64,000 bases of DNA from Candidatus Micrarchaeota archaeon (GTDB taxonomy: Archaea; Micrarchaeota; Micrarchaeia; Micrarchaeales; CABMGC01). Made by a program: the position numbers and the translations under genes. The notes beneath the pieces are model-generated. The model saw only the letters and a program-made list of their open reading frames with translations, did not search any database and was not told the DNA's origin. The DNA lies in NCBI GenBank assembly GCA_021801225.1, contig JAJYYF010000011.1, forward strand, positions 6,113 to 70,112, written 5' to 3'. This document shows positions 12,464-32,951 of the stretch, piece after piece; within the stretch, counting starts at the first letter, position 1, and every line of letters starts with the position of its first letter.

Positions 12464-12525
12464 AATCTCACCTAAGGGTTAAAAATTATATTAATATTTA
12501 AGAGTAAATTAATTTAAGCTTATCG

Positions 12526-12936: not shown

Positions 12937-12964
12937 AATAAAATACTATCTAAAGGCTTGTTTT

Positions 12965-15846: not shown

Positions 15847-15885
15847 ATTTTTATATTAAATCTACATATTTTGAAAACTCAATAA

Positions 15886-16755
15886 TCAAGAAGAATAAAC
15901 TAATTTTAAAGCCAGATTACCATCATAATAAGTATTTGGAAGTTGAATCGCGATATGGAGTGTTTTTCCTACATTACCAGTAAAGTTTAGTGGTAAGTTC
16001 GGAGTTACATTCTCAACATAAAAACCAGATGTTAAGGATGAGACATTCTCTAATGTAAGATTTATTGGAACCTGAAATGTTCCCGAGTAAGAGAATAAAG
16101 AATTTGAAGGTTTAGTTAAATTTATAGCATAAGTATAATTAAATGGAGTGTTGTCGTTATATGGAACTGCTATTGTTTGAAAACTTCCGGTTAAATAATT
16201 AATATTTGTATTATTGCAAGATTTATAGCAATAACTAATTTCAAAGTTTCTACTTATTGACATCTTTGGAAGTATATTATTATTTTTTAAGATTACAGTA
16301 CAATTAAAATCATTTGAAGGGTTTATAATTAAAGGACCACAACCAGTAAAGTTTTCTGGATTTGGATCAAGTAATTCTATTACGTTATTATTTAGGTATA
16401 ATGATGTGTTTAATGTATTTTTAAAGAATAATGTTAATTTGATACTTGAGGTGTTAATCAAGGAGGTTACTTTATAACACGATATAGATTTTTGATAAAC
16501 AGTATTAAAAAAAGTACAACTTGAGTTTGAGTATTTTGACCAATTAACGTTTTTGAAGTATATAGAGTAAGTGAAGTTTTTAATAGTTAGATAACTTATT
16601 GTAGTTGTCGTACTATTATTTGTAAAGCTAGTTGTGGTTGTAGAGTTTGTTTGTACATTTTTTACTTGATTTTTTAGGTTGGTAAGGTAGAAAATACTAA
16701 CTAATAATATAATTACTATCAGACCTGTTAAAATATAATTTATTTTTATTTTCAT
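15886..16755 (-). CDS. Membrane-anchored or secreted hypothetical protein rich in N-x-S/T sequons
   Basis: 289 aa. N-terminal anchor (ILTGLIVIILLVSIFYL) and a T-rich linker. Immediately downstream of the 707-aa pilin-like gene. Confidence 0.5.
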   Translation of the reverse strand: MKIKINYILTGLIVIILLVSIFYLTNLKNQVKNVQTNSTTTTSFTNNSTTTTISYLTIKNFTYSIYFKNVNWSKYSNSSCTFFNTVYQKSISCYKVTSLINTSSIKLTLFFKNTLNTSLYLNNNVIELLDPNPENFTGCGPLIINPSNDFNCTVILKNNNILPKMSISRNFEISYCYKSCNNTNINYLTGSFQTIAVPYNDNTPFNYTYAINLTKPSNSLFSYSGTFQVPINLTLENVSSLTSGFYVENVTPNLPLNFTGNVGKTLHIAIQLPNTYYDGNLALKLVYSS

Positions 16756-16767
16756 TTGATCACTTAG

Positions 16768-18891
16768 TTATGGAGGTGGAGTAAACTGATATAATGAGTA
16801 AATAGGCATTGTATTTGGAGATGGAGGTTGTGATGACCCACATGAACCGGGAGCATAACCCGGAGGACCACTATCCTGAGCGGGATTTGTAATAGGATAC
16901 TGCGAGTAACCATCAGCAGTTATAGTAAGAGTCACTTGTGATGCTACGACTGTTGCAGTACTTGATGGTGAACAATCATAAGGAGTACTAGTAGTATAAT
17001 AGTTATTATACATAACGGCATCTCCAAGACCAAGACCACCATAATAAGCATAAACTTCGCATTGATCAGGAACAGAACCAGTAAGTGAGGTTCCTATCTG
17101 AAACCAACCGTATTGATCAGTTTGAGTATATGGAAGAGGTGGGTTTGGAGCCTGTGTACCTAATGAATCTTGAATAAAATTACAACTATTATAACTCTGA
17201 ATTTCATTTACCCAGACATATATATTGCCCCATTTTGCAGTTTCAACAACGTTGTTCTTTAAGTCATTTAATATGAAGTTAGAATTACTACCAGAGTAAG
17301 AACCTGTGCCTGAACCACTCCAACCAGTAAATGGTATTGCTTCGTTACCATTTATGCACCAAAATGTATAAGGATCTGGAGTATTTTGAAAACTTGAAAA
17401 TGATGTGCCACTTGAAGTATAACCATTTGTTTGAGTTGTTGATAGGTAATTTGAAGAAAATGTGCCAAATCCGTACTCGTTATTTTCTGCTGAGAGGGTT
17501 CCTTGACTTACCTCTCCGCCATTATAATTAGCACCGTATGGAGTTGACACTGCATTTGCAGAACCAGAATATGGACCACACCAATACCACCCATAAGGTG
17601 CTGTATTTTGATAAGTAACTGTAGGATCTTGTCTTGTATAAAATGCTACTGCTAATGTATCTAAACCACCATAAGAGCCTGGAAGTGTAAATGAGGTAAC
17701 TGTATTTGAAGTTGAAGGGCCAGCTGGTGGATTCGACTGGGAAGTACTAAAGCCCCATCCTTCAAAAATAAAGTTTGTGCCTCCAGCTGCAGAACATGTT
17801 GATTGAGCTGATACGGATTGTGGAATTACGGTAGCTGGTGAAGCAAAGAAATCAATAAAAGGATTCTTTTCTGCTGGAGAGGCAGGACCTATATTTACAC
17901 ATGAAGCAACTGCCTTTGAGTATTGAGCATTAAAACCGCCACCTAAAGGAGCATAATTAGTAAAGGTAGTACCGGTTCCAGCATCAGACGAAGGATCTGC
18001 CAAAGCCCCAGCACCTACCCAGTAATTACTAGTAGAAGTTGTTGGTAGTGTTGATTGTGATATTGATGTTAATGGAGTGGTTGTTGAAGTAGTTGTTGAT
18101 GTTGTTGATGTAGTGGTTGAGGAAGTAGTTGATTGGGTTGTTGGAGTTGTTGTTGGAGTTGTTGTTGGATTTGTGGTCGGTGTTGTTGTCGGTGTTGTAG
18201 ATTGAGTTGTTGTGGTTGTTGTTGATGTCGTGGTTGAGGTTGATGTAGTGGTTGAGGTTGATGATTGGGTTGTTGGTTGAGTCGATGGTGATGTTTGAGG
18301 AGTACCTCCACCGGGTGGAGTTATTATTTGTGGGATTCCGGTAGGAGGTATTACTATTATTGATTCTTCAATAAGTATATTTGCTGGATATGCATAACTT
18401 ACTGAAGAACCTGAAGTAGATAATTTAGTCAATACTGGATTGTTTTTACAATTTACACTTACACATTCAGAGTAATTAAAAAAGAATTGAGGTTCTAGCT
18501 GGGAACCGGTATTTGGAAAGAAGTTAGCTAGAAATGCAGTGCAGGTTACCTTTCCACCTTGAGCTATACTAGATGGAGTACAGATACCAGACGCAATGTT
18601 TGAAGCAGCACTTAGCTTTACAAAAAATGATGGATTATTATTAAAATAGATAGGTTTTCCAATATTATTAGTAAATGCTATTATTGCTGTTGAACCGAGA
18701 GTATTAGTACTTATTATTAATTGATAACATGGAAAACCACTGGAAATATAACAATAAGAAGGACTAAATGTGCTTGATGAAGTTGATGAGGTAAGTATAA
18801 AATAAACTGAAATCACTATAGCTATGAGTATTATTGCCCAAGAATATGTTACTAAATACTCCATTGCCGACTGAAGTTTCATAACTTTCAT
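16768..18891 (-). CDS. Very large pilin-like surface protein: class III signal peptide, Thr/Pro-rich stalk, and a G/S/Y/W-rich C-terminal region
   Basis: N-terminus MKVMKLQSAMEYLVTYSWAIILIAIV, the same QSAMEYL core as the 167-aa pilin. About 80 aa of T/S/P repeats. The C-terminal ~430 aa carry FxGW motifs (FIFEGWG, PFTGWSG) and paired cysteines. Confidence 0.7.
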   Translation of the reverse strand: MKVMKLQSAMEYLVTYSWAIILIAIVISVYFILTSSTSSSTFSPSYCYISSGFPCYQLIISTNTLGSTAIIAFTNNIGKPIYFNNNPSFFVKLSAASNIASGICTPSSIAQGGKVTCTAFLANFFPNTGSQLEPQFFFNYSECVSVNCKNNPVLTKLSTSGSSVSYAYPANILIEESIIVIPPTGIPQIITPPGGGTPQTSPSTQPTTQSSTSTTTSTSTTTSTTTTTTQSTTPTTTPTTNPTTTPTTTPTTQSTTSSTTTSTTSTTTSTTTPLTSISQSTLPTTSTSNYWVGAGALADPSSDAGTGTTFTNYAPLGGGFNAQYSKAVASCVNIGPASPAEKNPFIDFFASPATVIPQSVSAQSTCSAAGGTNFIFEGWGFSTSQSNPPAGPSTSNTVTSFTLPGSYGGLDTLAVAFYTRQDPTVTYQNTAPYGWYWCGPYSGSANAVSTPYGANYNGGEVSQGTLSAENNEYGFGTFSSNYLSTTQTNGYTSSGTSFSSFQNTPDPYTFWCINGNEAIPFTGWSGSGTGSYSGSNSNFILNDLKNNVVETAKWGNIYVWVNEIQSYNSCNFIQDSLGTQAPNPPLPYTQTDQYGWFQIGTSLTGSVPDQCEVYAYYGGLGLGDAVMYNNYYTTSTPYDCSPSSTATVVASQVTLTITADGYSQYPITNPAQDSGPPGYAPGSCGSSQPPSPNTMPIYSLYQFTPPP
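18060..18300. repeat. Low-complexity coding repeat (Thr/Ser/Pro stalk of the 707-aa protein)
   Basis: Reiterated GTTGTTG/GTGGTTG/GGAGTTG units on the + strand, translating on the - strand to TTTSTSTTTSTTTTTTQSTTPTTTPTTNPTTTPTTTPTTQ. Confidence 0.8.
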
Positions 18892-18970
18892 TTGAACGCT
18901 TAAATATAAAAATATATGTTTTGTAGTTAATAAATTAATTTAAAATAGAAATAATACCTAAAATAAAGTT

Positions 18971-19043
18971 TAGCCCCTACCGGATTCGAACCGATGTTCG
19001 TGGGTCCAAAGCCCACTGTCCTTGGCCACTAGACGAAAGGGCT
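18971..19043 (-). tRNA. tRNA-Gln (anticodon UUG), no intron
   Basis: Hand-folded, 73 nt. Acceptor AGCCCTT/AGGGGCT (A1-U72, as typical for archaeal tRNA-Gln); D arm GTCT-AGTGGCCAA-GGAC; anticodon arm GTGGG-CTTTGGA-CCCAC; T arm ATCGG-TTCGAAT-CCGGT. Confidence 0.9.
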
Positions 19044-19089
19044 AGGTTATTCTTAATTATATGTATAATTTAATATTTAAATATTAAGT

Positions 19090-20406
19090 TTAGTAAGACC
19101 TTGCAAAGTAAACAGTTATTTCTGAAGGTTTGTTACAATAAATACAGTTGCCTTTTTTACTTTCTTTGAATGGTATTGCTCTTGATGTTGCAGTAGTATC
19201 TGCTTTTATCTTTTCTTCGCATTCTGGACTTCCACACCATAAAACCTTAACAAAGCCTTTTGCTACCTTTTCCTTAAACTCGTCATAATTTTTCGCAGTG
19301 AATATTAATGAGGACATTAGCTCTTTATTTTTTTTAAAGATATTTTTTTGTATTTTTTTAAGCAAGGTTTTACAAATTTTTAATACCTCTTCTTGTTTTA
19401 CAGTTATCTTTTCTCCTGTATCTCTCCTAACAATTACAACATTATTTTCTTTTAAATCTCTTGGACCTATCTCAATTCTTATTGGGACTCCTTTTAACTC
19501 CCAATAATTAAATTTATATCCAGGGGATCTTCCTTCTCTATCATCAAATTTTGTAGTTATATCTTTTTTATTTAGCAGTTTAGATAATTTTGAAGCGACC
19601 TCGGATACATTTGCTTTATCTTCTTCAGAATAAAATATAGGCACTATTACTGCTTGTATCGGAGCTATTTTAGGAGGAAGCATTAAACCTTTATCATCAC
19701 TATTCAACATTATTAGAGCGCCTAAGAGTCTTGTAGATATGCCCCATGAAGTAGTGTGTACATTTTTATTATTGCCATCTTTATCGGCATAGCTAACATC
19801 AAAATGCCTTGAGAAGTTTTCTCCTAGATAATGAGAGGTTCCTGATTGAAGTGCCTTCCCATCTGGCATTATTGCTTCTATTGTTGTAGTATAAACTGCT
19901 CCGGCAAATTTTTCTGATTCTGTTTTAGTCCCTAGTATTACGGGGATTGCTAAATACTTTTCAGCAAGCTCTTTATAGAACTCTAATGCCATAATTACCT
20001 CTTTTTCTGCTTCTTCTTTAGTTGCGTGAGCGGTATGACCTTCTTGCCATAAGAACTCGCTGGATCTCAAGAAAGGCCTAGTTGCTTTTATCTCAGCCCT
20101 AGCAACATTGCACCACTGATTTAATAACATAGGTAAATCTCTCCAGCTTCGTATCCACTTTGACATGAAGTGATAAACCATAGTTTCTGAAGTAGGTCGA
20201 ATAGCTACTTTTTCGCCTAGTTCTCTGTCGCCGCTTTTCGTTACCCAGAAAAGTTCTGGAGCAAAGCCCTTGAGGTGTTCTGACTCTTTTAAAAAGAAGC
20301 TTTCTGGAATAAATAATGGAAAGTATGCATTTAAGTGGTTTGTTTCTTTAATCATATGATTAAATTTTTCCTGTATGTTTTCCCATATTGAGTACATGTA
20401 AGGCAT
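19090..20406 (-). CDS. proS: Prolyl-tRNA synthetase, archaeal/eukaryotic type. Coordinates are the ATG-delimited ORF; homology continues upstream.
   Basis: 438 aa with a class II core and the C-terminal zinc-binding domain ending in Y. The upstream in-frame codons (to 20583) encode ...GITVKKSENLSEWYTQIVTKAELADYGPVQGTVAI, the conserved ProRS N-terminus. They have no ATG/GTG/TTG (see findings). Confidence 0.85.
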   Translation of the reverse strand: MPYMYSIWENIQEKFNHMIKETNHLNAYFPLFIPESFFLKESEHLKGFAPELFWVTKSGDRELGEKVAIRPTSETMVYHFMSKWIRSWRDLPMLLNQWCNVARAEIKATRPFLRSSEFLWQEGHTAHATKEEAEKEVIMALEFYKELAEKYLAIPVILGTKTESEKFAGAVYTTTIEAIMPDGKALQSGTSHYLGENFSRHFDVSYADKDGNNKNVHTTSWGISTRLLGALIMLNSDDKGLMLPPKIAPIQAVIVPIFYSEEDKANVSEVASKLSKLLNKKDITTKFDDREGRSPGYKFNYWELKGVPIRIEIGPRDLKENNVVIVRRDTGEKITVKQEEVLKICKTLLKKIQKNIFKKNKELMSSLIFTAKNYDEFKEKVAKGFVKVLWCGSPECEEKIKADTTATSRAIPFKESKKGNCIYCNKPSEITVYFARSY

Positions 20407-20616
20407 TATTGCTACCGTACCTTGTACAGGCCCATAATCCGCAAGTTCAGCTTTGGTTACAATTTGTGTATACCATTCTGAAAGATTTTCACTTTTTTTT
20501 ACAGTTATTCCTTTCTCATCTTCTGATTTTTTAAAGTCCAGATAAACACCTATTATATCATAGAATAATGAATTAATTAGTATTTATATTTATTCTATAT
20601 GTAGTTTATGGGTAAT

Positions 20617-21267: not shown

Positions 21268-21405
21268 GGGGTTGTGGCGTAATTTGGCAGCGCGGCAGGC
21301 TCCAGATGTTTAAAAAATCTTTGAGCTATAAGCTGTGATGAAGATCTGGAAATTTGAAAAATATGAAGTAACCTGCACGTCCGGGTTCAAATCCCGGCAA
21401 CCCCA
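21268..21405 (+). tRNA. tRNA-Trp (anticodon CCA) with a ~65-nt intron at the canonical 37/38 position
   Basis: Hand-folded. Acceptor GGGGTTG/CAACCCC; D arm GCGT-AATTTGGCA-GCGC; anticodon stem GCAGG (21295-21299) / CCTGC (21372-21376); loop CTCCAGA with CCA at 21302-21304; T arm CCGGG-TTCAAAT-CCCGG. Intron about 21306-21370; mature length 73. Confidence 0.85.
21335..21357 (+). ncRNA. C/D-box-like guide module inside the tRNA-Trp intron
   Basis: GUGAUGA (21335-21341), a 12-nt spacer AGAUCUGGAAAU, then UUGA (21354-21357). The spacer's AUCUGGA pairs with 21301-21307 (UCCAGAU), placing C34 opposite the 5th nt upstream of the D-like box. Confidence 0.45.
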
Positions 21406-21421: not shown

Positions 21422-22069
21422 TTATTTGGTTTTTGATCTTGATTTTTTATTTGAGTTTAAAGTACGTTTACGCTTAGATTGTTTTATTTTGCTTTGAAAC
21501 TTTGGTTTTTTAACTTTTTTAATTATAAAGTAATATAACAATCCCAAAATAATTATTATTGCCAATATAATTAGTACTATGTATATTATAGGCAGTCCTA
21601 CTGGTTTTAATGCAGTTACTCCTACTATCTTAGCAACGCCCTGTTGTAGAATAGCTCCGCTTCCAGATATAGTATTATTTGATAGTTCTATTGCTTGTAG
21701 TATGCCGCTCCAATGCATTCCAGGTTTATTTTTATTTGATGGCATATACACAGTAACATTTAATGTTAACTGACCGCCAGAAGGGATTGTACCATTCATT
21801 TGTGAAATAGAAAATGTTGGAGTAGTTGAGTTAGGTATAGTATTTAGTGTAGGTAGTATTATTTTAAAACTTAAAGGTTTAGAGCCACCGTTTATTAATG
21901 TAAAAGGTAATGAAGCACTCCCACCTATACTTGCATTGAAATTTAACTGCCCTGCAACTTCTCCGAATTGAGCATAATTAAGATTAATAAAAAGAAAGGA
22001 AAGAAGAGAAAAAATAAAAAATAAACTAATTAAATGGATACGATTAAAGTTCATATGACCATTTAGCAA
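21422..22069 (-). CDS. Secreted single beta-sandwich-like domain protein with a C-terminal TM anchor and K-rich tail (last gene of the surface operon)
   Basis: 215 aa. Signal-like N-terminus. The domain shows the pattern GGSASLPFTLINGGSKPLSFKIILP...GGQLTLNVTVYMP, then TM PIIYIVLIILAIIIILGLLYYFII and a KKVKKPKFQSKIKQSKRKR tail. Its start overlaps the upstream gene's stop by 7 nt. Confidence 0.55.
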   Translation of the reverse strand: MLNGHMNFNRIHLISLFFIFSLLSFLFINLNYAQFGEVAGQLNFNASIGGSASLPFTLINGGSKPLSFKIILPTLNTIPNSTTPTFSISQMNGTIPSGGQLTLNVTVYMPSNKNKPGMHWSGILQAIELSNNTISGSGAILQQGVAKIVGVTALKPVGLPIIYIVLIILAIIIILGLLYYFIIKKVKKPKFQSKIKQSKRKRTLNSNKKSRSKTK

Positions 22070-22578
22070 GAGTTTTCAAATGTTATTGTTTGAGTGTATG
22101 TACCAGGAGTTGTTCCGCCAGGAACTTCCAATCCGAAGTACACTGTATTTGATGTAGAAGGTGATAAAACTGTTGGTGCAGGTATTTGTATAGCTGTATC
22201 TACTAATGAAGTTGTTAAAGAAACACCTAAGTATGAAGACTGTGACAAACCATTATAATTTGTTTGGCCTACGGCAAATGTATTTGAACCTGAAGCCCAA
22301 GTAGTACCTTCTAAAAGAATATTTGCAGCTACATTTCCGCCATTATCAGTATCTGTTACTAAAACGTTTGTATCATATGCGGAAGTTGGTGCCATATTTC
22401 CAAATGTTATTGAGTTAGGAGAGATTCCTATAAAACAAGCTGATGAAACCACTACATTTGCATTGACGTTTGAGCTTCCTGATGAAGGGTATATGAGTGG
22501 AAATGATAAATAACTCATAACTCCTATTACTCCAAAGAAAATGCCTAATAACAAACTTAAATTCTTTTTTTGCAACAT
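22063..22578 (-). CDS. Small secreted protein consisting of the Cys-bracketed module shared with the 1510-aa adhesin (candidate filament subunit)
   Basis: 171 aa. Signal peptide, then ...NVNANVVVSSACFIGISPNSITFG...NTVYFGLEVPGGTTPGTYTQTITFENSC. It ends with the same FGLxVPGGTxxGTYxQxITFENSC as the giant protein. Confidence 0.6.
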   Translation of the reverse strand: MLQKKNLSLLLGIFFGVIGVMSYLSFPLIYPSSGSSNVNANVVVSSACFIGISPNSITFGNMAPTSAYDTNVLVTDTDNGGNVAANILLEGTTWASGSNTFAVGQTNYNGLSQSSYLGVSLTTSLVDTAIQIPAPTVLSPSTSNTVYFGLEVPGGTTPGTYTQTITFENSC

Positions 22579-22701
22579 ATTAATACCAAGTAAATATCAA
22601 ACTAAAACATTTATATAGTTATCTGTAATTATTTGAACCGCCAAAGATAAAACTTTATTTTGTTCAGATTAAAACTAAATTTATTAAAGCTAAATTTTTA
22701 T

Positions 22702-25700
22702 TTAACATGAGTTCTCAAAGGTTATGATTTGTTGATATGTCCCAGAGTTAGTACCACCTGGAACTCTCAGACCGAAGTATATTGAGTTGCTTCCAGTAGA
22801 AGGTATGCTAATCAAGGTATTTGATAAAACAGATGTAAGTTTTGATGCAGTAGAAAATGCAATGTTGTTTGTTGCTGCCCATGTAGTATTACTCACACCA
22901 AACTGTGTAGGTCCAATCCAATTTCCTCCAAAAATATACATGTATGCGCCAGTATTCCCAGTATTTGTATCGATTATAGAGTTTATAGTGTTTATACTTG
23001 AAGAGGGATTTAAAGTACCAAAAGTTATTGAGTTTTGATTTAATGATATAGTACAAGTAGATTGTGAGGATACAGGAAAAACACTTCCCTGAAAAACGTA
23101 AGGCATAACTCCATTAGGAGGATATGCTCGTATAATTAACCCATTCATATACTGGGTTGAGGTACCACTTCCAGCGTCTCCTACAAATCCAAGATAATCT
23201 CCTTTGTTTGTTACACTATAATTATTAGAAGGATTTTTTCCTATTTCAGTTCCATAAGTTCCAGGAGTGGTCGATAAGAACAGTTGAGCATTACCATTAG
23301 TTATTGTTAGACCCATTAGTAGCCATTCATTTGACCATGTTCCTGTGTCAGGAGGTGCATACCACAATATCCATGATGCTGAAGGAGCAATACCGTACCA
23401 TCCAGCACCATTTCCAACCCTAGCAATTTGACCTGCTCCTGTAGAGTTTGCTAAAAAGAATAAATCATCCAAATTTTGCGTATACGTATAATACTCTATT
23501 ATTGAGTTTTCAGATTGATTATTTGCAATAGTATAAAGATAATCGCCATTAGCGCCATTCGCATAAAATGCATTTAGACCAAATGGAGAACCAGAAGGAG
23601 CTGAGGTAGTATCACCAGCAGTACCTGCAACTGTCCAACCGTTTAATGAGCCTCCGTTAAAATAATTGTTAAAAACATAATTACCATTATCATACTGTGC
23701 ATATGTTGAAGTTGCTGTTGGAAACTCTCCTATGCCGTTAATACCGCCGTTAGAAAGTAAGTTTAATGTATTACTTCCAAAACCAATATATAGAGGATAA
23801 ATAGAGTTTGATGATATACCATAGGGTAGTTTTACCCATATAGTGAGGTTACCTGTATTATTATTCTCTATCCATGAAGGAATAACATCGCCACTAATGT
23901 TAAATATCTCGAAATTAGCATCGTTTCCATTATACTGAAGATAATTTTTATAAGTGCTTTCATTTATGCTAATTAATTGCTGAAAAGCACCCTGTACCGA
24001 AGCAGTTTGATTATTAAGAATACATAAAGGTGCATAAAATAATGTATTATAAGGTGTACTGCTAGGTGTATTAACTACACATACATCTTGTTTAACGCTG
24101 TTTGATAAATAATTGCCGTTTCCAGAACTTGATAATGTAATATTGTATAAATTATTACCAGTAGGAGGATAAAAATCATAAATATTATTAGAGTTTGAAC
24201 TTGATACAGATGAACCATCTATATATAAAACAGATTGAATCTGATTCCCAGGTGTTGAAATTGAATAATTAATTGGGAAGTAACTTCCACTGTTCAATAT
24301 TACTTTGGGTAAATTTAATTTTAAAGAAGGGTATGCCTGTATTACATCCAATAATGTATTTGTACTTACTCCGGAGGTTATATCATTTACAGATATAGTG
24401 TAACTTCCAGGAGATATGCAGTCGCTAATAGATGGAGTCGCTCCACATATGGTGTATGTTACTACATTTGCAGTAGGACCAGCAAGTAAAACTCCGTCAT
24501 TAAATAACTCCAACATATCTTGACTTTTTGGGCTTATTCCGTTAATTATATCTGAACTTCCATATGCAACCGGATTATTTTGTATTTGGATTACAGGCAT
24601 ACTTGAAGATTGAGGAGTGCCGAATGATGCAGAAGGCATAACACCATTTGGAGGATAGTTACGTATTATAAAGCCATTCCAATATGTTATATGAGATGAA
24701 CCTAAACCGTCGCCTACTAATCCAATATAATCACCATTATTTTTTATAGAAAATTGAGATGTTGCAAGAGTACCTAATGTTGAGATATAATTTGAAACAC
24801 TACCAATATACGCATTTGCAGTAGTACTTGATATAACAACATCGTATTTATACCAAATATTTTCTGAAGTATCTATTCCGGGAGATGGAGCCGCCCACGA
24901 TGTCCAGGAACTGGTTGTTGCAATTCCAGAATAATCACCACCGCCTCTGCCGTCAAGTCTTGCCATCTGTCCTGAACCAGCAGAGTTTGTAAGAAAAAAG
25001 AGGTTACCAAGACCAGTAGTGTATACATCAAAAGTTATGATAGAATTTTGAGACAGACCACTTATAGGTAAGTACATATAATCACCGTTTGCAGAGTTCG
25101 CATATAACGCGTTTGGACTAGAATAATAACTTCCTGATGGAGCCGTTTTTTCTCCAGCAGTACCGTGGATTGTCCAACCAGATGAAGAACTTGGATTTAC
25201 GTTGTAATATGTAAATACAGTTGATCCATCATCATACTCGGCATAAATTGGACTTAGTTGTGGTGCCTCCCCGATATCAACATTATTAAATAAATTCTGT
25301 GAAGTTAATGAAAAACCCATGTATATTGTAATACCATTATCTGGCATAATAGTATTGGAAAGTTTTAACCAGTAAATAGTGTTTGTAGAGGTGTAAAAAT
25401 AAATTGAGTTTGTTGGATTATTTAATAAGTTATTGCTTGTACTGCCTTCCATCCAGCTCGGAATTATGCTTCCATTATAATAAAAAAATTCTATGTTACT
25501 CAGATTTTTAGACTCGTAACTTTTAAATTCTAAACTGTTTACTGGAAGCATATATTGAAAAGGTACAGGAGTAGGTTCATTTTGCAAATTAGATAAAGTG
25601 ATTGGTACATAAGAGAGTATTCCAGACGGTATTACTATCAAGGTAGGATCTACGGAAGAGTAATTATTATTTCCATAAGTATCAAAAGTAATGATAGCAT

Positions 25701-27234
25701 TAGTTGTATAGGGCAAGTTATAAAGAAAAGTTTTATTTACCGAGTTATAATTGCCACTCCCTGTAACTGTTGTTCCATTGTTAAATTTTATAGAATATGA
25801 AAACTCTGCATAATTATTATTACCAAGAACACTTTTTAAAGATATAGATAAGTTGTAATTTTTTTTATTTTCTAATACTGGAACATAAATTTTACCAGTT
25901 GAGTTTGTTTTATTAAATGATACTCCATCAACTGCTATAGACATATTAGGAGCAGCCTTTACAACTGAAATATTGTAATATGAAACAGTAGATTGATTAT
26001 TGTAAGTGAGTAGATTTATACTCTTCCCAGCAGGAATAAATTTTCCATCTTGTTTTATTAAACCATAACTCAGATTGAATGTTTGATTATATTGAGTTAT
26101 AGGAATCCTTTTTGTTTTTATATAATTTTTGAAATTTAAAAGTTGTTGATTGCTTAAAGATGTAAGATTATTGATAATTGAATAATTTAGATATATGCTA
26201 CTATTACTCGATGTATTTATGCTATTTATAGAAGTATTATAATTTGTATTAAGATTTTGATTTGATAATTTAGGGTTTATTTCGCTTTTTATATTTGCGA
26301 TATCTGCTGTCGAGTTTAGAGATTCTTTAATTTTTGAAGAAATTAATAATGGTTTAATAAATACTCCCTTGGACATGTTGAAATTATTAAATAATGGGAT
26401 TATTATTTTTGAGATGTTGCTCGAGCTAGAAAATGTTGAGTTAGATATGGAATAATTATACTGAATAGCCATTGCAGTTATGTTTTTTACTTTTATAGAG
26501 TTGTTTTTATTAGTGATATTTGTATTTTTATTGAGTAACGAGATATTTAATAATGAAAAATTAATAGTTGTATTATAAGCATATGATAAATTTTCTTCGT
26601 TTTTATTTGGAAAGTATAAAATATTTCCATCTGTAATATTTTTTATTATAAAGGTATTATTTGTTCCAGAATACTTAAAGATTATTAGATTTGAATTAGA
26701 AGATTTTTCTATTCCGCCATATGATAAATTCCAACTCGTATTGAGGGGTAAGCCTTTCTCATAAAACTCAATAATCTTCAATACTGTATAATTTATTAAT
26801 ATTTTGTTTGAAGAGTTAAATTTGCTTATATTTATATCTTTTATTGAAGGAATAAAGACTTCGTTTCCATAAGATATATTAGAAATAAGTAATATGTTAC
26901 TATAATTTTGCTCATTATTTTGAATAGATATGGAGTTTGGAGTAATAGAATTAAATGCATCTGAAAAATTATTTATATATACACTCCATGATATATTTTT
27001 TGGTAAGCCATTTTCTATAATGCTAATATTTTTGTAATTTGTTTTTGTATATGATGTGTTTATTAGAGTAGTATTAACCTGAGAGTAGGATTGATTAGAA
27101 ATAATTGAGTTACTTATAAAATTATTAGAGTTTATTGTGTTATTAGAAATAACAGTATTTGAAACATTTGCTAATGTTAAAAGTAATAATACTGGAGGTA
27201 ATAGAATAATAAATAAACCAGAGTAACGAAACAT
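22702..27234 (-). CDS. Giant secreted adhesin-like protein (1510 aa)
   Basis: Signal peptide (LFIILLPPVLLLLTLA). The N-terminal region carries two E(N/K)GLPxNxSW beta-sandwich-type repeats. Two ~320-aa duplicated units carry patterns I associate with DUF2341 (NIEFFYYNGSIIPSWMEG / NFEIFNISGDVIPSWIEN ...IWVKL) followed by concanavalin/LamG-like regions; each unit ends in IIR(N/A)YPPNGVMP. The C-terminal module matches the 171-aa protein. Confidence 0.7.
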   Translation of the reverse strand: MFRYSGLFIILLPPVLLLLTLANVSNTVISNNTINSNNFISNSIISNQSYSQVNTTLINTSYTKTNYKNISIIENGLPKNISWSVYINNFSDAFNSITPNSISIQNNEQNYSNILLISNISYGNEVFIPSIKDINISKFNSSNKILINYTVLKIIEFYEKGLPLNTSWNLSYGGIEKSSNSNLIIFKYSGTNNTFIIKNITDGNILYFPNKNEENLSYAYNTTINFSLLNISLLNKNTNITNKNNSIKVKNITAMAIQYNYSISNSTFSSSSNISKIIIPLFNNFNMSKGVFIKPLLISSKIKESLNSTADIANIKSEINPKLSNQNLNTNYNTSINSINTSSNSSIYLNYSIINNLTSLSNQQLLNFKNYIKTKRIPITQYNQTFNLSYGLIKQDGKFIPAGKSINLLTYNNQSTVSYYNISVVKAAPNMSIAVDGVSFNKTNSTGKIYVPVLENKKNYNLSISLKSVLGNNNYAEFSYSIKFNNGTTVTGSGNYNSVNKTFLYNLPYTTNAIITFDTYGNNNYSSVDPTLIVIPSGILSYVPITLSNLQNEPTPVPFQYMLPVNSLEFKSYESKNLSNIEFFYYNGSIIPSWMEGSTSNNLLNNPTNSIYFYTSTNTIYWLKLSNTIMPDNGITIYMGFSLTSQNLFNNVDIGEAPQLSPIYAEYDDGSTVFTYYNVNPSSSSGWTIHGTAGEKTAPSGSYYSSPNALYANSANGDYMYLPISGLSQNSIITFDVYTTGLGNLFFLTNSAGSGQMARLDGRGGGDYSGIATTSSWTSWAAPSPGIDTSENIWYKYDVVISSTTANAYIGSVSNYISTLGTLATSQFSIKNNGDYIGLVGDGLGSSHITYWNGFIIRNYPPNGVMPSASFGTPQSSSMPVIQIQNNPVAYGSSDIINGISPKSQDMLELFNDGVLLAGPTANVVTYTICGATPSISDCISPGSYTISVNDITSGVSTNTLLDVIQAYPSLKLNLPKVILNSGSYFPINYSISTPGNQIQSVLYIDGSSVSSSNSNNIYDFYPPTGNNLYNITLSSSGNGNYLSNSVKQDVCVVNTPSSTPYNTLFYAPLCILNNQTASVQGAFQQLISINESTYKNYLQYNGNDANFEIFNISGDVIPSWIENNNTGNLTIWVKLPYGISSNSIYPLYIGFGSNTLNLLSNGGINGIGEFPTATSTYAQYDNGNYVFNNYFNGGSLNGWTVAGTAGDTTSAPSGSPFGLNAFYANGANGDYLYTIANNQSENSIIEYYTYTQNLDDLFFLANSTGAGQIARVGNGAGWYGIAPSASWILWYAPPDTGTWSNEWLLMGLTITNGNAQLFLSTTPGTYGTEIGKNPSNNYSVTNKGDYLGFVGDAGSGTSTQYMNGLIIRAYPPNGVMPYVFQGSVFPVSSQSTCTISLNQNSITFGTLNPSSSINTINSIIDTNTGNTGAYMYIFGGNWIGPTQFGVSNTTWAATNNIAFSTASKLTSVLSNTLISIPSTGSNSIYFGLRVPGGTNSGTYQQIITFENSC
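23090..24040 (-). repeat. Intragenic duplicated unit 2 (DUF2341/LamG-like) of the 1510-aa protein
   Basis: Protein-level repeat: FEIFNISGDVIPSWIENNNTGNLTIWVKLP...GWTVAGTAGDTTSAPSG...GDYLGFVGDAGSG...LIIRAYPPNGVMP. It parallels unit 1 residue block by residue block. Confidence 0.7.
24620..25612 (-). repeat. Intragenic duplicated unit 1 (DUF2341/LamG-like) of the 1510-aa protein
   Basis: IEFFYYNGSIIPSWMEG...IYWLKLS...GWTIHGTAGEKTAPSG...GDYIGLVGDGLGS...FIIRNYPPNGVMP. Confidence 0.7.
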
Positions 27235-27270
27235 TCAATCAATTACATTTGAATAAAAAATATAAAATAC

Positions 27271-28047
27271 TTATCTTTCTTTTTTAAATAAGCCAATTAT
27301 AAATGAGATAATACCTCTTTTGTAGTAATTTTGAGTGTTTGTTGATTTTGATGGGAAAAAGTTCGCTGTTTCAAGTATTGCTTTTGAAAATAAAGAACGT
27401 TTCTCTAAAAGAATTGCTGGTATATGCATAGCTATACTTTTTGGTACAACCTCTGACTCAGGCAAAACGCCTAATGCCTTTGAACCAAACATCTCCTCTA
27501 TCTCCTTTACATGAATCTCATATCGTTTGTTTTTAACTCTGTTTATAACCATATTTGATTTAAGTCCGAATTTTTTGTAGTTATTTGATAGCCTTACACA
27601 ACTTGTACAGGAGCTTAATTCTGGAGTAGTGATTATAATACCTTCATCACACATAGATGAAAACTCTGGAACTAGATAACCAGGAGCTGTATCAAATATT
27701 ATATAATCGTATCTTGACTTTTTGAGCTCATTTATAAATTTTTGTATTTGGAGTATGGATGGCTCTTTCTGATGACCAACAATACTTCCAGGAATTACTT
27801 TTAACCCTGTAGGAATGTGTGGTACCTCAACATCGCTGATTTTTGCATTTTTGAGTAGTATATCAGAAACTCCTAGATTTTGATTTTCTATACCTAAATG
27901 AAAACCGACACTTGGATTTGCAATATCAAAATCCACTAATAATACAGTATTGCCCATTTCTTGAAGAGATGTTGCTAAATTTACAGAAAATGTGGTCTTA
28001 CCTACACCTCCTTTTTGGGATGATACTTTTATTAGATATGGAGTCAT
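27271..28047 (-). CDS. MinD/ParA-family P-loop ATPase embedded in the surface operon
   Basis: 258 aa. Deviant Walker A SQKGGVGKTT, Walker B IIFDTAPG, and a C-terminal amphipathic segment GIISFIIGLFKKER. Its start codon directly abuts the stop of the upstream 682-aa gene. Confidence 0.85.
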   Translation of the reverse strand: MTPYLIKVSSQKGGVGKTTFSVNLATSLQEMGNTVLLVDFDIANPSVGFHLGIENQNLGVSDILLKNAKISDVEVPHIPTGLKVIPGSIVGHQKEPSILQIQKFINELKKSRYDYIIFDTAPGYLVPEFSSMCDEGIIITTPELSSCTSCVRLSNNYKKFGLKSNMVINRVKNKRYEIHVKEIEEMFGSKALGVLPESEVVPKSIAMHIPAILLEKRSLFSKAILETANFFPSKSTNTQNYYKRGIISFIIGLFKKER

Positions 28048-30096
28048 TTAATCACTATTTTTATCATAACTTCGTTCAACTTGATCCTTTATTCTTCTAA
28101 GTTCTTGACTTCTTTCTTTATTATATCTTGATTTATTCATCTTTACAACTAAATAGATTATTAATAAGGATAAAAATAATAAAGTAACGCTTATATAGGT
28201 CATTTTGGAGTTAATCAGATATTCAAATGGAGAGACACTGGAGTTTGTAGTGTTTTGAGTGTTTTTACTAGGCAACTGAGTAGTGTTTACCTTATTTGTA
28301 ACTAGTATAGGTATAGAATAAGAATAATTAACGTTTGTGCTTTTTATTAAAAGGGATATTAACATTGTTCCGGTGCTTGAGTTAGTTGAAATGTTAAAAT
28401 TAGTATAAAACAATTTATTTGGGGATACATTAAATGTTTGTATTGGATTTTGTATGCTTAAAGACCCATAGTTAGATAACATGAATGATACCTTATTATC
28501 AGTAACCCCAGTATACAAGGAGGTTATGGTTATGTGATTAGTTGAGTTAACATAAAATGTAGGTATATTTATTTTTAATATGTCAAGATTACTTTGAGTA
28601 TTTAAATTTGACTGAACAGCAAATATATTCTGTGTATTTTGTAAAAATGATTGATCAGATATATTTTTTATTTGATAATATGCGTAGGTGCTTTGGCCTT
28701 TTTGTAGATAGGGAATATACCAGTTTATATCGTAATATCCCTCAGAAGTGGTTAGATTATTTTGAACACCGTAAGCTGAGATCTGGGAGATGTTTTTTGC
28801 TGATGATAAAGGAAGTTTTGTGATTAAAGTTATGTTAGATAGTGATTTATTCAAAGGTGCAGAGATATAAATTGTACCGAATGCATCTGCAGTGTTATTT
28901 GTTAATATTACCTGTGAGTTTATAATAGGTTTTAATTGTGTATTATTATAGATATTTAAGGTTACAAACTCTTCTTGAGTCTCGGTCGTACCGTTTAATA
29001 TATGAGTAGTTATGTTTATAGGTATTGTATAAAAACCTGGTGATGCGGTATTATTGCCGATAAAATTCAATGATATTGAAAGAGAAGAGTCAGGGTTTAT
29101 ATAAATATTTTTTGATGAAAAAGAGATAATTTTTGAAAATTTCTCTGGTACTGACATATTTAAAATCTCTGGAACAGACCCAGTATTAAATATTTTTAAT
29201 GATGATGTGGTCTCTGTTCCTTGTCCAGTAGAGACGTATATTGGAATGTTTAGTATTGAAAGCTGTGGGAATGAGGTTATAAAGGTTTTATGTTGTGGAG
29301 GACTTGGAGAGGATGTACTATACTGATTTTGTATTACATTATAAAATATTTTTTTTTCTGAGTAGCCTTTAATATTTGGATATTCTGAAGTATTGAATAG
29401 TATTAATGCAGTTACATTATATCTTCCTGGAATAGACGTTAAATTTTCAGGTTCTATTATTGTAATATTTTTACTTTCTCCTGGAGACAGACCTGTTTCG
29501 TTATATTTAGTATTAATTGAAACTGGACCTGAAATTGAGAAGTTTATAGTTATTTCATTTGAAGCAAGATTTCCAGTGTTTGATAGGTTTATATTAAAAA
29601 CTATTTGTGAGTTTATGTTTGTTTGATTTGGAATAGCTACAAAATTAGATACTGCAATGTTAGCCGGCAATATCAACGAAAGTGATTTTTTACTTGTATT
29701 GTAAAAATTTTCTCCGGAAAATGAAAGATTGATTATAGAGTTAACTGGAAAGGAAGATGTATTTAGTGTTATTATAGAGTTGTATTCATTTTTTAAATTA
29801 GATAAAGTTATAGATTTTTGATACAATATTGAATTTGAGTTCTTAGGAGTTACGTTCACATAACCAGAGATACTTCCTATGTTACAGCTATATTGTGAAG
29901 TTATAGAGTAACTAAGGGATATTTGAGAGTATTTTATATATATTGGAAGGGAGTTTAACACTAATTTAAAAGGACATATTACATTTACATTTGCCGATAA
30001 AGAACTACTTGAAAATGATAATGGAAGCAATAAATACAATAAAATTAATGTAAGACTAAATGTAGTAATAATTAATCTTTTGGGCTCTTTATACAA
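28048..30096 (-). CDS. Secreted multi-domain protein (CARDB/NEW3-like beta-sandwich repeats) with a C-terminal TM anchor and charged cytoplasmic tail
   Basis: 682 aa with a signal peptide. Repeats have the form ...VFNINLSNTGNLASNEITINFSISGP...GESKNITI...PGRYNVTALI and ...LKIFNTGSVPEILNMSVP...PGFYTIPINIT. C-terminal TM VTLLFLSLLIIYLVV, then KMNKSRYNKERSQELRRIKDQ. Confidence 0.6.
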   Translation of the reverse strand: MYKEPKRLIITTFSLTLILLYLLLPLSFSSSSLSANVNVICPFKLVLNSLPIYIKYSQISLSYSITSQYSCNIGSISGYVNVTPKNSNSILYQKSITLSNLKNEYNSIITLNTSSFPVNSIINLSFSGENFYNTSKKSLSLILPANIAVSNFVAIPNQTNINSQIVFNINLSNTGNLASNEITINFSISGPVSINTKYNETGLSPGESKNITIIEPENLTSIPGRYNVTALILFNTSEYPNIKGYSEKKIFYNVIQNQYSTSSPSPPQHKTFITSFPQLSILNIPIYVSTGQGTETTSSLKIFNTGSVPEILNMSVPEKFSKIISFSSKNIYINPDSSLSISLNFIGNNTASPGFYTIPINITTHILNGTTETQEEFVTLNIYNNTQLKPIINSQVILTNNTADAFGTIYISAPLNKSLSNITLITKLPLSSAKNISQISAYGVQNNLTTSEGYYDINWYIPYLQKGQSTYAYYQIKNISDQSFLQNTQNIFAVQSNLNTQSNLDILKINIPTFYVNSTNHITITSLYTGVTDNKVSFMLSNYGSLSIQNPIQTFNVSPNKLFYTNFNISTNSSTGTMLISLLIKSTNVNYSYSIPILVTNKVNTTQLPSKNTQNTTNSSVSPFEYLINSKMTYISVTLLFLSLLIIYLVVKMNKSRYNKERSQELRRIKDQVERSYDKNSD

Positions 30097-30929: not shown

Positions 30930-31448
30930 TTATGCTTTTTTTGGCTTCTTCATCAAAAGATATGCAGCTACTATTATAATGATTATTACAATTATTGCCA
31001 CAACTGTACCTAGATTGTTTGAGCCTGAAGATGTAGAAGCACTTGTGTTTTCTGACGCAGATGTATTTGAAGATGAATTTGTATTTGATTTTGTTGGTAA
31101 TGTATTGCTTGATGTACTATTATTTGTTTTTGTAGTGTTAGATGTTGTTTTGCTTGATATTGTGTTGCTTGATGTACTATTATTTGTTTTTGTAACGTTA
31201 GATGTTGTAGATGTTGTGTTGTTTGATATAGTGTTGCTTGAAATGGTATTGCTTGATATGGTGTTCGATGTAGTAGTGTTTGTAGTTGTTACATGAGTTG
31301 TTGATGTCGAGTTTGTAGAGTTAGTTATTGGCGGTATTACAAAGAATGAAAGACCGACTGGATTAAATCCTGATGCTCCGACAAATGCAAATGATGTGAA
31401 GATCAACAACATTGCAACTATTATCTTATTTTCTAGTTTATTTCTCAT
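30930..31448 (-). CDS. S/T/N-rich repeat surface protein with a C-terminal TM anchor
   Basis: 172 aa. Signal-like N-terminus, reiterated SNTIS / TKTNNSTSSNT units, and C-terminal VVAIIVIIIIIVAAYLLM followed by KKPKKA. Confidence 0.55.
   Translation of the reverse strand: MRNKLENKIIVAMLLIFTSFAFVGASGFNPVGLSFFVIPPITNSTNSTSTTHVTTTNTTTSNTISSNTISSNTISNNTTSTTSNVTKTNNSTSSNTISSKTTSNTTKTNNSTSSNTLPTKSNTNSSSNTSASENTSASTSSGSNNLGTVVAIIVIIIIIVAAYLLMKKPKKA
31101..31265. repeat. Coding tandem repeat (two ~60-bp units plus 15-bp sub-repeats)
   Basis: 31101-31148 versus 31161-31208 are identical at 45 of 48 positions by eye. This is followed by reiterated TTGCTTGA(T/A)AT units encoding SNTIS. Confidence 0.8.
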
Positions 31449-31502: not shown

Positions 31503-32951
31503 CTATGAAGCTACTACAGTGCCTGATGCTGAGGCGCCCTCCTCTCCACCTACCTTTATTGTATAATTACTACCTGGTGAAACTTGAGCTGATATAGCGC
31601 TATTTTGATCTCCAAATATTATAGCCCCATTAAATTGTAGCGTTTCTGTTGCACCTGGCTGTATGGTATAACCCATATTTTCGAAATCAGCATATGCTCT
31701 AGGAAGTGTTAGATTTCCATTCTCGGATATTAAAAAGTTCAGAACCTTGAATTTTACTAAATTAATTCCTAGGTGTTCTTCTATGCTTAATGAATTGTCA
31801 AAAGTGTTGTTCAGTCCTCCTTTTGATGAGATTGAAGAATTTTGCTTTTCTGAAACAGAGGTTTCATTTATTTTTGTTGTGCCATTTGAGCTATCGCTTG
31901 ATCCCATATTTGAGTTATCTTTTGAGTTTGATTTATTTACACTTATAGATAAGCTAGAGTTTACTACTAAATTTGAGTTTGAACTTGGAGGTGATGGAGG
32001 AGCATTTGTTTGTACATTTAACTTTCCAGTAATACTTGCTTTTGATGATATGTTTATATTAGAGATATTAACTCCTTCTTTTCCATCTATTGAGCTGTTT
32101 ATCTGTATTATAGGAGTTTGATTTATTGAGATCCTTGAATTTATATTACCATAAAGTAGAATATGGTTAATTACAACACTTTGATTTCCATTATTTTTGA
32201 GTGTAACTGAAAAGGATGTAGATGCATTATTTTGTGATAAAGATGATGAAAGTATTGTTAGATTAGGTACTGAGTTTTCTAGATTTGCACGATCTGAAGA
32301 GTTAAGCTTAAACCTTGCGCCTATTGTCAAGTTATGAGGATTTGAACTTACTGAATTGCTGCCTATAATTACTGCTTTTAAAGAAGGTACAAGTACGAAT
32401 AAAGTAGAGTTCGATGTCATTATTGTGGCAATAGTTGGCGATAAATCTAATAATACACTTGAGTTTGATGTGGCTTTAGCGCTTGAATGAATATTTGTAG
32501 ATATCTGTCCACTAGGTACTGTAACCGAATAGTTGGTGTTGTTGATTTCTATAGAAGCGGAGGTTACATTGAATTTTATCTGATTTATAGTTGCATTAAC
32601 TGGAACATAAACATTGCCTATAACTTGTGTAAGATTAATTATTGACATAAGATTTATCTGGCCGTTACCACTTCCATAAACCCATGAGGATGAACCGTTA
32701 GCGTTGTTTACTTTGATTGCTAATGAAGAATATGAGATAAGTATTGCTTGTGTGCCATTTGGTGCATGTGGAGGATCAGTTAATTGAATTGGCATAATTA
32801 CAGTATTAGAAGATACAAAAGATGAGGATTGTGTTGAGTTTTTATTCGTATTTACAGGTAAAGAGTTGACTCCAGAAGTATAAGTAAGTACTATATAAAG
32901 CACAGCTATTATCAATATTGCTACTATTATATATGAAAAATTTTTATTCAT
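31503..32951 (-). CDS. Secreted or membrane-anchored hypothetical protein (N-terminal region DUF4382-like)
   Basis: 482 aa. N-terminal anchor. PIQLTDPPHAPNGTQAILISYSSLAIKV resembles the LTDAP start of DUF4382 as I recall it. S/N-rich middle region. Confidence 0.45.
   Translation of the reverse strand: MNKNFSYIIVAILIIAVLYIVLTYTSGVNSLPVNTNKNSTQSSSFVSSNTVIMPIQLTDPPHAPNGTQAILISYSSLAIKVNNANGSSSWVYGSGNGQINLMSIINLTQVIGNVYVPVNATINQIKFNVTSASIEINNTNYSVTVPSGQISTNIHSSAKATSNSSVLLDLSPTIATIMTSNSTLFVLVPSLKAVIIGSNSVSSNPHNLTIGARFKLNSSDRANLENSVPNLTILSSSLSQNNASTSFSVTLKNNGNQSVVINHILLYGNINSRISINQTPIIQINSSIDGKEGVNISNINISSKASITGKLNVQTNAPPSPPSSNSNLVVNSSLSISVNKSNSKDNSNMGSSDSSNGTTKINETSVSEKQNSSISSKGGLNNTFDNSLSIEEHLGINLVKFKVLNFLISENGNLTLPRAYADFENMGYTIQPGATETLQFNGAIIFGDQNSAISAQVSPGSNYTIKVGGEEGASASGTVVAS

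Follow-up and report, generated by a model that had tools for sequence, protein, structure and literature searches.

The DNA analysed here is a window of 64,000 nucleotides from a Candidatus Micrarchaeota archaeon (contig JAJYYF010000011.1), with a G+C content of ~30%, and our subject is a cluster of five genes on its minus strand that may encode the parts of a surface fibre. In the order of transcription, these are gene A (28048-30096), which encodes 682 amino acids from a TTG start codon; gene B (27271-28047), which encodes a MinD-type ATPase of 258 amino acids; gene C (22702-27234), encoding a large protein of 1510 amino acids; gene D (22063-22578), encoding a small protein of 171 amino acids; and gene E (21422-22069), encoding 215 amino acids if translation begins at a TTG codon. 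Judged from its homologues, E more likely begins at an alternative ATG at 22054 (Met6). Genes A and B abut at 28048/28047, the B-C and C-D spacers are 36 and 123 nt long, and D and E either overlap by 7 nt (TTG start) or are separated by 8 nt (ATG start). An earlier reading of this DNA, made from the letters alone (the sequence-only reading), had described five co-oriented genes with coupled junctions, and the coordinates of the open reading frames (ORFs) bear this out.

The small protein D and the large protein C end in the same module. D consists of a signal peptide (residues ~1-31), an N-terminal strand, and a module (residues 45-171) with one cysteine near its start, Cys48, and another as its last residue, Cys171. 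BLASTP aligns D with the C-terminus of C at 39% identity over ~150 amino acids (E 2e-21), which confirms the earlier observation of a shared module and puts its common part at ~125 amino acids. The module of C (residues 1388-1510; 22705-23073, minus strand) contains both conserved cysteines, but it lacks the N-terminal strand: it matches positions 46-173 of the hidden Markov model of the D family with an E-value of 6e-40, so that the strand motif lies outside the match. The description of D as consisting only of the C-terminal module was therefore wrong; it also carries a conserved N-terminal strand that the module of the large protein does not have. A profile search against 1.84 billion representative proteins yielded 652 representatives of the module family. 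They fall into three architectures, namely stand-alone modules, tandem modules, and large proteins of 500-3400 amino acids, and in the large proteins the module is always found at the extreme C-terminus.

The N-terminal strand of D, SNVNANVVV (residues 36-44; 22447-22473, minus strand), has alternating hydrophobic residues and is a candidate donor strand. An SNVxAxVxV stretch is conserved at the N-terminus of the small subunits, following a cleavage site of the signal peptidase I type; the residues corresponding to V38, A40, and V42 are near-invariant and the first conserved cysteine lies 3-4 residues past the strand. We applied a position matrix for this strand to the sequence upstream of every module. 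Among single-module proteins (n=98), 87% score above the threshold, with a median of 18.5. The terminal modules of large single-module proteins (n=81) score above it in only 2% of cases, with a median of -7.7, and random 14-mers (n=2000) in 0.2%, with a median of -15.1. In tandem proteins the motif is found ahead of both modules, with only 7-15 residues separating module 1 from the second motif, and in both of the large proteins that have two modules it is absent before module 1 and present before module 2.

Because the motif is absent from the lone modules of large proteins and present wherever another module precedes, it appears to serve the preceding module rather than its own. This is the distribution expected of a strand that complements the preceding module, and not of a module's own first strand, and from it we infer that SNVxAxVxV is used as a donor strand. 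The same logic is established for chaperone-usher pili, both for FimH and FimA and for engineered self-complemented pilins. With a strand on the small subunit and none on the module of the large protein, the proposal of the sequence-only reading that D is the shaft subunit and C the tip gains support.

The two cysteines of the module are kept or lost together: 243 modules have both, 11 have neither, and a single module has only one. The 11 modules lacking both are mostly the first modules of tandem proteins. This joint retention and loss indicates that Cys48 and Cys171 would form an intramolecular disulfide, a staple that joins the start of the module to its last residue. The same pattern argues against intermolecular disulfides of the Ena type, which we rejected, and the module of C keeps both cysteines though it has no N-terminal strand.

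As the sequence-only reading had noted, the signal peptides are not of class III, the type found in type IV pilins. A small-x-small site of the signal peptidase I type is found in 55 of the 59 members of the D family, and only 5 of 59 match the class III (FlaFind-type) motif; the hydrophobic segment is not conserved. None of the large ORFs in the 64-kb window contains a T2SSE or T2SSF domain, in agreement with the reported lack of PilB/PilC-type genes. Together, the type of signal peptide and the lack of these domains in the large ORFs of the window rule out a type IV pilin.

Neither D nor its 59 relatives match any Pfam or NCBIfam family, save for one weak match to Mfa_like_1 at 0.005. We predicted the structure of D with AlphaFold2 from the 59-sequence alignment (predicted local distance difference test score, pLDDT, 91; predicted TM-score 0.74) and compared the model with the PDB using Foldseek. 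Most of the 50 matches listed are subunits of donor-strand filaments. At the top are FimG (5.5e-4) and CsuA/B (5.8e-4), and further matches to chaperone-usher pilins include FimF, FimA (TM-score up to 0.54), CfaB, PapA, Caf1, PapE, PapH, and HdaB; those to FimG, CsuA/B, FimA, PapA, and Caf1 span E-values from 5.5e-4 to 1e-1. Later in the list are the archaeal bundling pilin AbpA (1.3e-2), the cannula protein CanA, and the bacterial TasA (2.7e-2). About 11 of the 50 are GH123 glycosidases, matched through their N-terminal beta-sandwich, and 2 are other beta-sandwich domains. Of the structures that the sequence-only reading had named for comparison, CsuA/B, FimA, AbpA, and TasA were thus all matched, and the Saci_0406 thread subunit is not among the 50 matches listed. 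Despite the modest scores, the make-up of the list obtained with this model is unlike that of a generic immunoglobulin (Ig) domain.

The strand motif recurs on protein A. Hydropathy gives A (28048-30096, minus strand) a signal peptide, ~600 amino acids of Ig-like domains, a transmembrane helix at residues 631-655, and a charged tail of 27 residues, consistent with the earlier description of a C-terminal membrane helix and a charged tail. The multiple CARDB/NEW3-like domains in the same description are seen only weakly: CARDB matches A itself with an E-value of 0.004, under the Pfam cut-off, and the matches of its homologues to CARDB (5/14), NPCBM_assoc (2/14), and Cep192_D3/D4 are all weak. 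At the mature N-terminus of A lies SLSANVNVIC (residues 32-41; 29974-30003, minus strand), the same motif as in the strand of D. The 14 A homologues align over their full length, and [ST]xx[ST]ANVxVxCPF occurs at the mature N-terminus, directly past the signal peptide, in 14 of 14 members of the A family. When a position-specific scoring matrix derived from D was run on the N-termini of A proteins, the scores ranged from 4.8 to 24.5, and 11 of 14 exceed the 99th percentile of the control N-termini (n=335; 95th percentile 5.9, 99th percentile 9.6). The donor-strand motif at its mature N-terminus makes A a candidate for a membrane anchor or terminator subunit.

We also considered whether the N-terminal domain of A could be a divergent pilin module and ruled this out: hhalign aligns the motif only, and the domain past the motif has its own conserved pair of cysteines, Cys41-Cys70. 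A profile search with A returned only 8 close relatives. The cytoplasmic tail (residues 657-682; 28051-28128, minus strand) contains a pattern, Y..R..EL.R..ERIKR, conserved in the 14 aligned homologues, and may be a binding site for MinD. An Ig domain is 4-5 nm long. The Ig-like stalk of A would fit the pseudoperiplasm of Ca. Micrarchaeum harzensis, which is 20-25 nm wide (bioRxiv 10.1101/2021.04.28.441871).

Protein E (21422-22069, minus strand) alone among the proteins of the cluster has a fold of the chaperone type. It consists of a signal peptide, a mature N-terminus reading QFGEVAG, a beta-sandwich at residues 34-158, a transmembrane helix, and a K-rich tail of 32 residues (21425-21520, minus strand), with signal peptide, helix, and tail as given by hydropathy; its conserved last strand, GAILQQGVAKIVGV, lies at 21617-21658 (minus strand) and contains the invariant Lys147. 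The 19 E homologues share a QLGEVAG N-terminus, one beta-sandwich, a last strand of the form GAVIxxGVAK with an invariant lysine, and a transmembrane helix, followed by a polybasic tail of 10-90 residues. They are found in Micrarchaeota only. Searched against PDB sequences, the E-family profile matches Hydin (3.2e-10, summed over repeats), CFAP65 (3.9e-9), and the ASH domain of OCRL (3.2e-3). In Pfam, members of the family match Cep192_D6 (13/19; best E 1.9e-5), Ig_CFAP65_4th (10/19), OCRL-like_ASH (10/19), and MSP (2/19), as well as HYDIN_VesB_CFA65-like_Ig and ASH. Domains of the ASH/MSP type are classed together with the fold of pilus chaperones, and PDB entry 6fvi is titled 'ASH / PapD-like domain of CEP192'. 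By these profile matches, E is a beta-sandwich of the ASH/PapD-like/MSP type and not a member of the PapD/FimC chaperone family; hydropathy and the ASH-type matches agree with the earlier description of a single beta-sandwich with a membrane helix and a K-rich tail.

Since it has an ASH/PapD-like domain, E is a candidate for a membrane-tethered chaperone or assembly factor. In nearly all loci its gene directly follows the last module gene. The donor G1 strand of PapD contains an invariant lysine that anchors the C-terminal carboxylate of the subunit. By analogy, the invariant Lys147 in E's last strand may play a comparable part, the C-terminal residue of D being invariant too. The suggestion that the two membrane-bound beta-sandwich proteins are anchors or chaperone-like factors is supported and can be refined, with A as the anchor, on the basis of its strand motif, and E as the chaperone candidate, on the basis of its ASH/PapD-like fold.

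The assignment of gene B to the MinD/ParA family holds up, with matches to AAA_31 (2e-21), CbiA, and ParA in Pfam. The archaeal MinD model TIGR01969 (minD_arch) scores 134.8 bits, under its cut-off of 201.75, and the protein is therefore a divergent MinD-like protein rather than an equivalog. Its deviant Walker A motif, SSQKGGVGKTT, lies at 27991-28023 and a conserved amphipathic C-terminal helix, RGIISFIIGLFKKER, at 27274-27318 (both minus strand); hydropathy reveals no hydrophobic segment. SSQKGGVGKTT, the Walker B motif DTAPG, and GIISFIIGLFKK are conserved in 16 cluster-linked MinD homologues. By analogy with the family, these proteins probably form ATP-dependent dimers that bind the membrane.

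The large protein C (22702-27234, minus strand) has a signal peptide (residues 1-26), a region rich in Asn, Ser, and Ile (27-541), two repeats (542-868 and 1067-1379), and the C-terminal module. There are ~47 N-glycosylation sequons in the 515-residue Asn/Ser/Ile-rich region. The repeats, each of ~330 amino acids, are 40% identical (E 3e-62), and repeats of this type recur 47 times in other module-bearing proteins. We found no Pfam, NCBIfam, or PDB-profile match for the N-terminal parts of C, and so the label of adhesin is supported by no homology in these searches, though it is a reasonable guess. Other large members of the family carry Spherulin4 or Flg_new_2 domains. Because the large members differ in their N-terminal domains, the distal cargo would appear to be interchangeable. 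Two other candidates for the repeats were dropped. A lectin label (DUF2341/LamG-like) fell away when the repeat profile had no Pfam or PDB match. A single-sequence match of repeat 2 (residues 1051-1376; 23107-24084, minus strand) to PDB entries 9rwu and 9rwv, a 210-residue 'Pilus assembly protein', at an E-value of 0.0017 was lost with a profile; we found no paper on these entries.

To follow the cluster across genomes, we scanned one genome per species for the module pattern, called ORFs in 38 loci, and searched these with the five window proteins. By the pattern scan 33 loci encode the module, nearly all of them from Candidatus Micrarchaeota, Micrarchaeia or Mancarchaeum. A syntenic cluster is found in ~17 distinct Micrarchaeota loci whose flanking genes differ between genomes, which argues for inheritance of the cluster as a unit. 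The order that recurs begins with A (~660-683 amino acids) and MinD (~256-273), continues with a large protein that is optional and has the module at its end, and closes with a small (165-195) or tandem (~325) module protein and E (~190-250). An A homologue of 660-683 amino acids lies directly upstream of MinD in ~17 loci, and the two genes abut or overlap in ~16 of the 17 across 25-45% sequence identity. The five-gene order that the sequence-only reading had wanted checked in related archaea is thus kept in Micrarchaeota while the flanking genes differ. Ca. Micrarchaeum sp. A_DKE, whose genome is complete, has two clusters 14 kb apart.

Departures from this order are instructive. Five loci (L013, L014, L021, L024, and L025) have A-MinD-D-E and no large protein. 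One locus (L034) has three D genes ahead of one E, and another (L002, 8623-11100) has two successive D-E pairs, of 194 and 240 and then of 183 and 183 amino acids; this joint duplication suggests that each subunit may have its own cognate E partner. In a distant groundwater lineage (L037) the same four core families are present in a different order: D without a strand, E, D with a strand, A, and MinD. Locus L017, from a Micrarchaeota metagenome-assembled genome, appears to encode a fusion of MinD and D (5743-7128, an ORF of 461 amino acids), in which the MinD stop codon is read through into the small-subunit gene. With the start and signal peptide of the subunit intact, the loss of a stop codon or an error in sequencing seems more likely than a real fusion.

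Among the other loci, L001 has the same search scores as cluster 1 of A_DKE (L029) for A, for MinD, and for a large protein of 1786 amino acids. L001 has a small subunit of 176 amino acids between the large protein and E that the A_DKE cluster lacks; the difference suggests a presence/absence polymorphism in the shaft gene. In L004, a protein of at least 3348 amino acids (11205-20504) starts directly downstream of E, and one family member, P0081, has 3421 amino acids and ends in two modules. Giant tip proteins may therefore be encoded beside some clusters.

Taken together, the sequence, fold, and synteny data support the overall interpretation of the sequence-only reading, and we lean, by a narrow measure, towards a cluster that encodes a donor-strand-complemented surface fibre or tether of Micrarchaeota that is built without an usher. 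The extracellular parts would be exported through Sec and cleaved by signal peptidase I. From the membrane outwards, the chain would run from A through a number of D subunits to C. As the repeating subunit, D would insert its free N-terminal strand into the module of its neighbour. Having no strand, the module of C could only accept one, which places C at the distal end, where it would bear its large, heavily glycosylated N-terminal domains. The strand of A would fill the groove of the last subunit and in this way tie the fibre to the membrane, and a chain of this composition would leave no groove empty and no strand unused. E, translated together with D, would cap newly exported modules until strand exchange takes place, standing in for both soluble chaperone and usher, and MinD would cluster or position A through its tail. 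Here we infer strand insertion, the polarity and length of the fibre, the parts played by E as a chaperone and by MinD, and adhesion to the host. A more specific proposal is that Micrarchaeota build such a fibre by a pathway of their own, in which a tethered PapD-like chaperone replaces the soluble chaperone and usher, an anchored donor-strand subunit terminates the fibre, MinD places it, possibly at the contact with the Thermoplasmatales host, and the tip displays interchangeable large glycoproteins; this we advance tentatively, and we think it somewhat more apt to be wrong in one of its parts than right in all of them.

Several observations weigh against a donor-strand fibre. The module has no sequence-level match to any pilin family and no sequence relative in the PDB, the Foldseek scores are modest (best E 5.5e-4, TM-score 0.38-0.54, sequence identity 12-18%), and Ig-like folds match promiscuously. 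An earlier AlphaFold2 model of D, made from a shallow alignment of 13 sequences, was poor (pLDDT 65) and had the N-terminal strand folded back on its own module. The structural role of the missing motif in large proteins could be filled by an unrelated linker strand. The likeness of the D and A motifs covers 23 columns in hhalign, with an E-value of 1.6e-3 and a probability of 16%. E has a single domain and matches neither PapD_N nor PapD_C, and each ASH-type Pfam match of the window protein is under the curated cut-off. Thin filaments seen by cryo-electron tomography at host contact sites in the A_DKE co-culture would suit a fibre, but the authors assigned them to the host (PMC8975820). Lastly, one locus (L023) has no MinD, and cluster 1 of A_DKE (L029) reads A-MinD-C-E, without a small D.

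This last arrangement would suit a display tether rather than a long pilus, one in which strand donation by A holds a single large surface protein and D is an optional spacer, present in one or a few copies, the whole being a general means of anchoring exoproteins without a sortase. The module is found at the end of more than 80 different large proteins, whose N-terminal parts are as varied as Spherulin4, Flg_new_2, and the 330-residue repeats, and the tandem and triple D genes suggest spacers of a defined, short length. Still, we judge a mere tether unlikely: the five loci that have D and no large protein mean that D is not just a spacer for C, and the fold matches are to pilins that polymerise. 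A weaker point is an TATATAAA element at 22610-22617 (minus strand), which can be read in the 123-nt spacer between C and D, ~35 nt before the start codon of D. It is a possible internal archaeal promoter for D and E, which would allow D to be made in excess, although the evidence for it is weak because the genome is ~70% A+T. The module might instead be a self-contained Ig-like domain for retention or sorting that binds the surface layer (S-layer), glycans, or E and undergoes no strand exchange; the D proteins would then be free copies of it and the motif a tag for processing or recognition. The C-terminal domains of the type IX secretion system and other sorting domains sit at the extreme C-terminus, as the module always does in large proteins, and the second commonest fold match is the N-terminal beta-sandwich of GH123. 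This explanation, which we find quite doubtful, leaves unexplained why the motif is missing from 98% of the modules of large proteins and yet is present between tandem modules and on A, and a pure N-terminal tag would not recur internally. Moreover, no structure of a type IX C-terminal domain or S-layer-homology domain is among the 50 Foldseek matches listed. As for the S-layer itself, the known S-layer protein of Ca. M. harzensis, Micr_00292 (S_layer_N, PF05123), is a different gene (bioRxiv 10.1101/2021.04.28.441871) far from both clusters (L029 and L036), for which reason we rejected an S-layer role.

The five genes could also be neighbours with unrelated functions, MinD acting in division or chromosome positioning and the surface proteins being merely co-located. 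In most cases MinD/ParA proteins do serve division, DNA, or motility cargo (PMC11588486), and the locus lacking MinD fits such a view. However, the coupling of A and MinD in ~16 of 17 loci at 25-45% identity, the continued linkage of this pair to D and E when the order is changed, and the differing flanks make it very improbable.

Of the systems known, the cluster works most like the chaperone-usher pili (Fim, Pap, Csu, and Caf1), and yet it fails on sequence, usher, and two-domain chaperone. The likeness consists in the best structural matches for D, in an N-terminal extension of alternating hydrophobic residues on the subunit and none on the C-terminal pilin module of the tip (FimH, PapG), and in a beta-sandwich protein of the PapD-like superfamily encoded beside the subunit. 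The differences are that D has no fimbrial Pfam homology and comes from an archaeon; that there is no outer membrane; that there is no usher-like protein in the cluster or among the window ORFs of at least 397 amino acids; that E is a membrane-anchored single domain with a polybasic tail, whereas PapD and FimC are soluble and have two domains; that the predicted disulfide of D joins the start of the module to its C-terminal residue; and that the cluster adds a membrane-anchored subunit, A, and a MinD ATPase. MinD/ParA ATPases position surface machines in the case of TadZ/CpaE, and Tad pili are type IV pili with PilB/PilC-type motors. Here, too, a pilus-type locus includes an ATPase of the MinD type with the deviant Walker A motif, but no PilB/PilC-type motor was found among the large ORFs of the window.

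Among archaeal filaments, the haloarchaeal Tafi or Tat-dependent bundling pili (TafA/E, TafC, TafF, and TafD) use strand donation, have proposed tip and membrane-anchor proteins, and lack an usher (PMC12337348). Their pilins are TasA-like, often exported by Tat, and need a SipW-type peptidase (TafD/TafG), and assembly is thought to be free of chaperones (PMC12337348). The Micrarchaeota cluster resembles them as what would be an usher-less strand-donation pilus locus of archaea with a proposed tip and anchor; it differs in that the Tafi loci contain neither MinD nor a PapD-like protein, and no signal peptidase of the SipW/TafD type is present among the five genes or their immediate neighbours. 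The threads of Sulfolobus, formed by Saci_0406 with Saci_0405 as a proposed cap, are exported by Sec and glycosylated, contain isopeptide bonds, and have an unknown assembly factor (PMC9715654). They resemble the fibre proposed for our cluster in being a Sec-exported archaeal donor-strand filament with a proposed cap encoded beside the major subunit. Unlike our cluster, the thread cluster contains neither MinD nor a recognisable chaperone, and it relies on isopeptide bonds where an intramolecular disulfide is predicted here; the module has no sequence match to PDB chains, those of threads included.

Donor-strand fibres are also formed by TasA/TapA of Bacillus and AbpA of Pyrobaculum (PMC9245690). 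TapA donates a strand and connects the fibres to the cell (PMC9715654), the role that we propose for A. In contrast to these proteins, A is an integral membrane protein with a long stalk of Ig domains, and TasA and AbpA are weaker fold matches for D (2.7e-2 and 1.3e-2) than the chaperone-usher pilins, in a cluster with no SipW-type peptidase. Cannulae, finally, polymerise without a chaperone (bioRxiv 10.1101/2024.12.30.630787). None of the threads, Tafi, or cannulae has a MinD or PapD-like partner. In the full-text literature we found no paper that links Micrarchaeota or DPANN to donor-strand pili, nor any mention of the A_DKE genes Micr_00916 to Micr_00921. The cluster is thus an undescribed set of assembly and anchoring partners for what would be a donor-strand filament.

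Donor-strand filaments are now known in archaea as threads, bundling pili, cannulae, and Tafi, and their assembly and anchoring are either unknown or assumed to be spontaneous. If our interpretation is true, the cluster would give archaeal donor-strand filaments their first defined assembly machinery, one that either arose independently or is very distantly related to the chaperone-usher principle of bacteria, and the chaperone-usher logic would then not be confined to the outer membrane of Gram-negative bacteria. The cluster offers a compact, conserved list of parts, consisting of a subunit, a tip, a donor-strand anchor, a PapD-like membrane protein, and MinD, in a lineage with a cultivated representative, Ca. 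Micrarchaeum harzensis A_DKE, whose complete genome has two copies. The Micrarchaeota, a DPANN lineage, live as obligate ectosymbionts on Thermoplasmatales, and it is not known which molecules attach them to their hosts; a fibre whose tip proteins are exchangeable and heavily glycosylated could plausibly serve as the organelle of attachment.

The genes next to the cluster are unrelated to it: a superoxide dismutase gene lies upstream, and downstream there is a convergent, intron-containing tRNA gene and then a HAD hydrolase. The tRNA gene (21268-21405, plus strand), directly downstream of gene E, has an insertion of 69 nt in the anticodon loop. Rfam recognises it as a tRNA (50 bits, E 5e-10), and ARAGORN gave no call there; the loop, read by eye, suggests the anticodon CCA and hence tRNA-Trp. 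A surface protein of 172 amino acids that resembles mucins is encoded two genes upstream of the cluster (30930-31448, minus strand), with a signal peptide, a long repetitive stretch rich in Ser, Thr, and Asn (SNTISSNTISSNTISNNTTS...), and a C-terminal transmembrane helix. Three large ORFs near the cluster have no Pfam match at E <= 1e-3: 13534-15846 (plus strand, 770 amino acids), 16768-18891 (minus strand, 707 amino acids), and 31503-32951 (minus strand, 482 amino acids). A protein of 901 amino acids at 45279-47984 (minus strand), with a right-handed beta-helix or NosD-like region (PF13229, 4.5e-12), may be a further surface protein. Beyond it lies a gene of the phage integrase family (48259-49512, plus strand; PF00589, 9e-19). 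Around 48000-52000 the G+C content is raised to 0.365-0.37, compared with ~0.30 elsewhere, and this region may be an integrated element.

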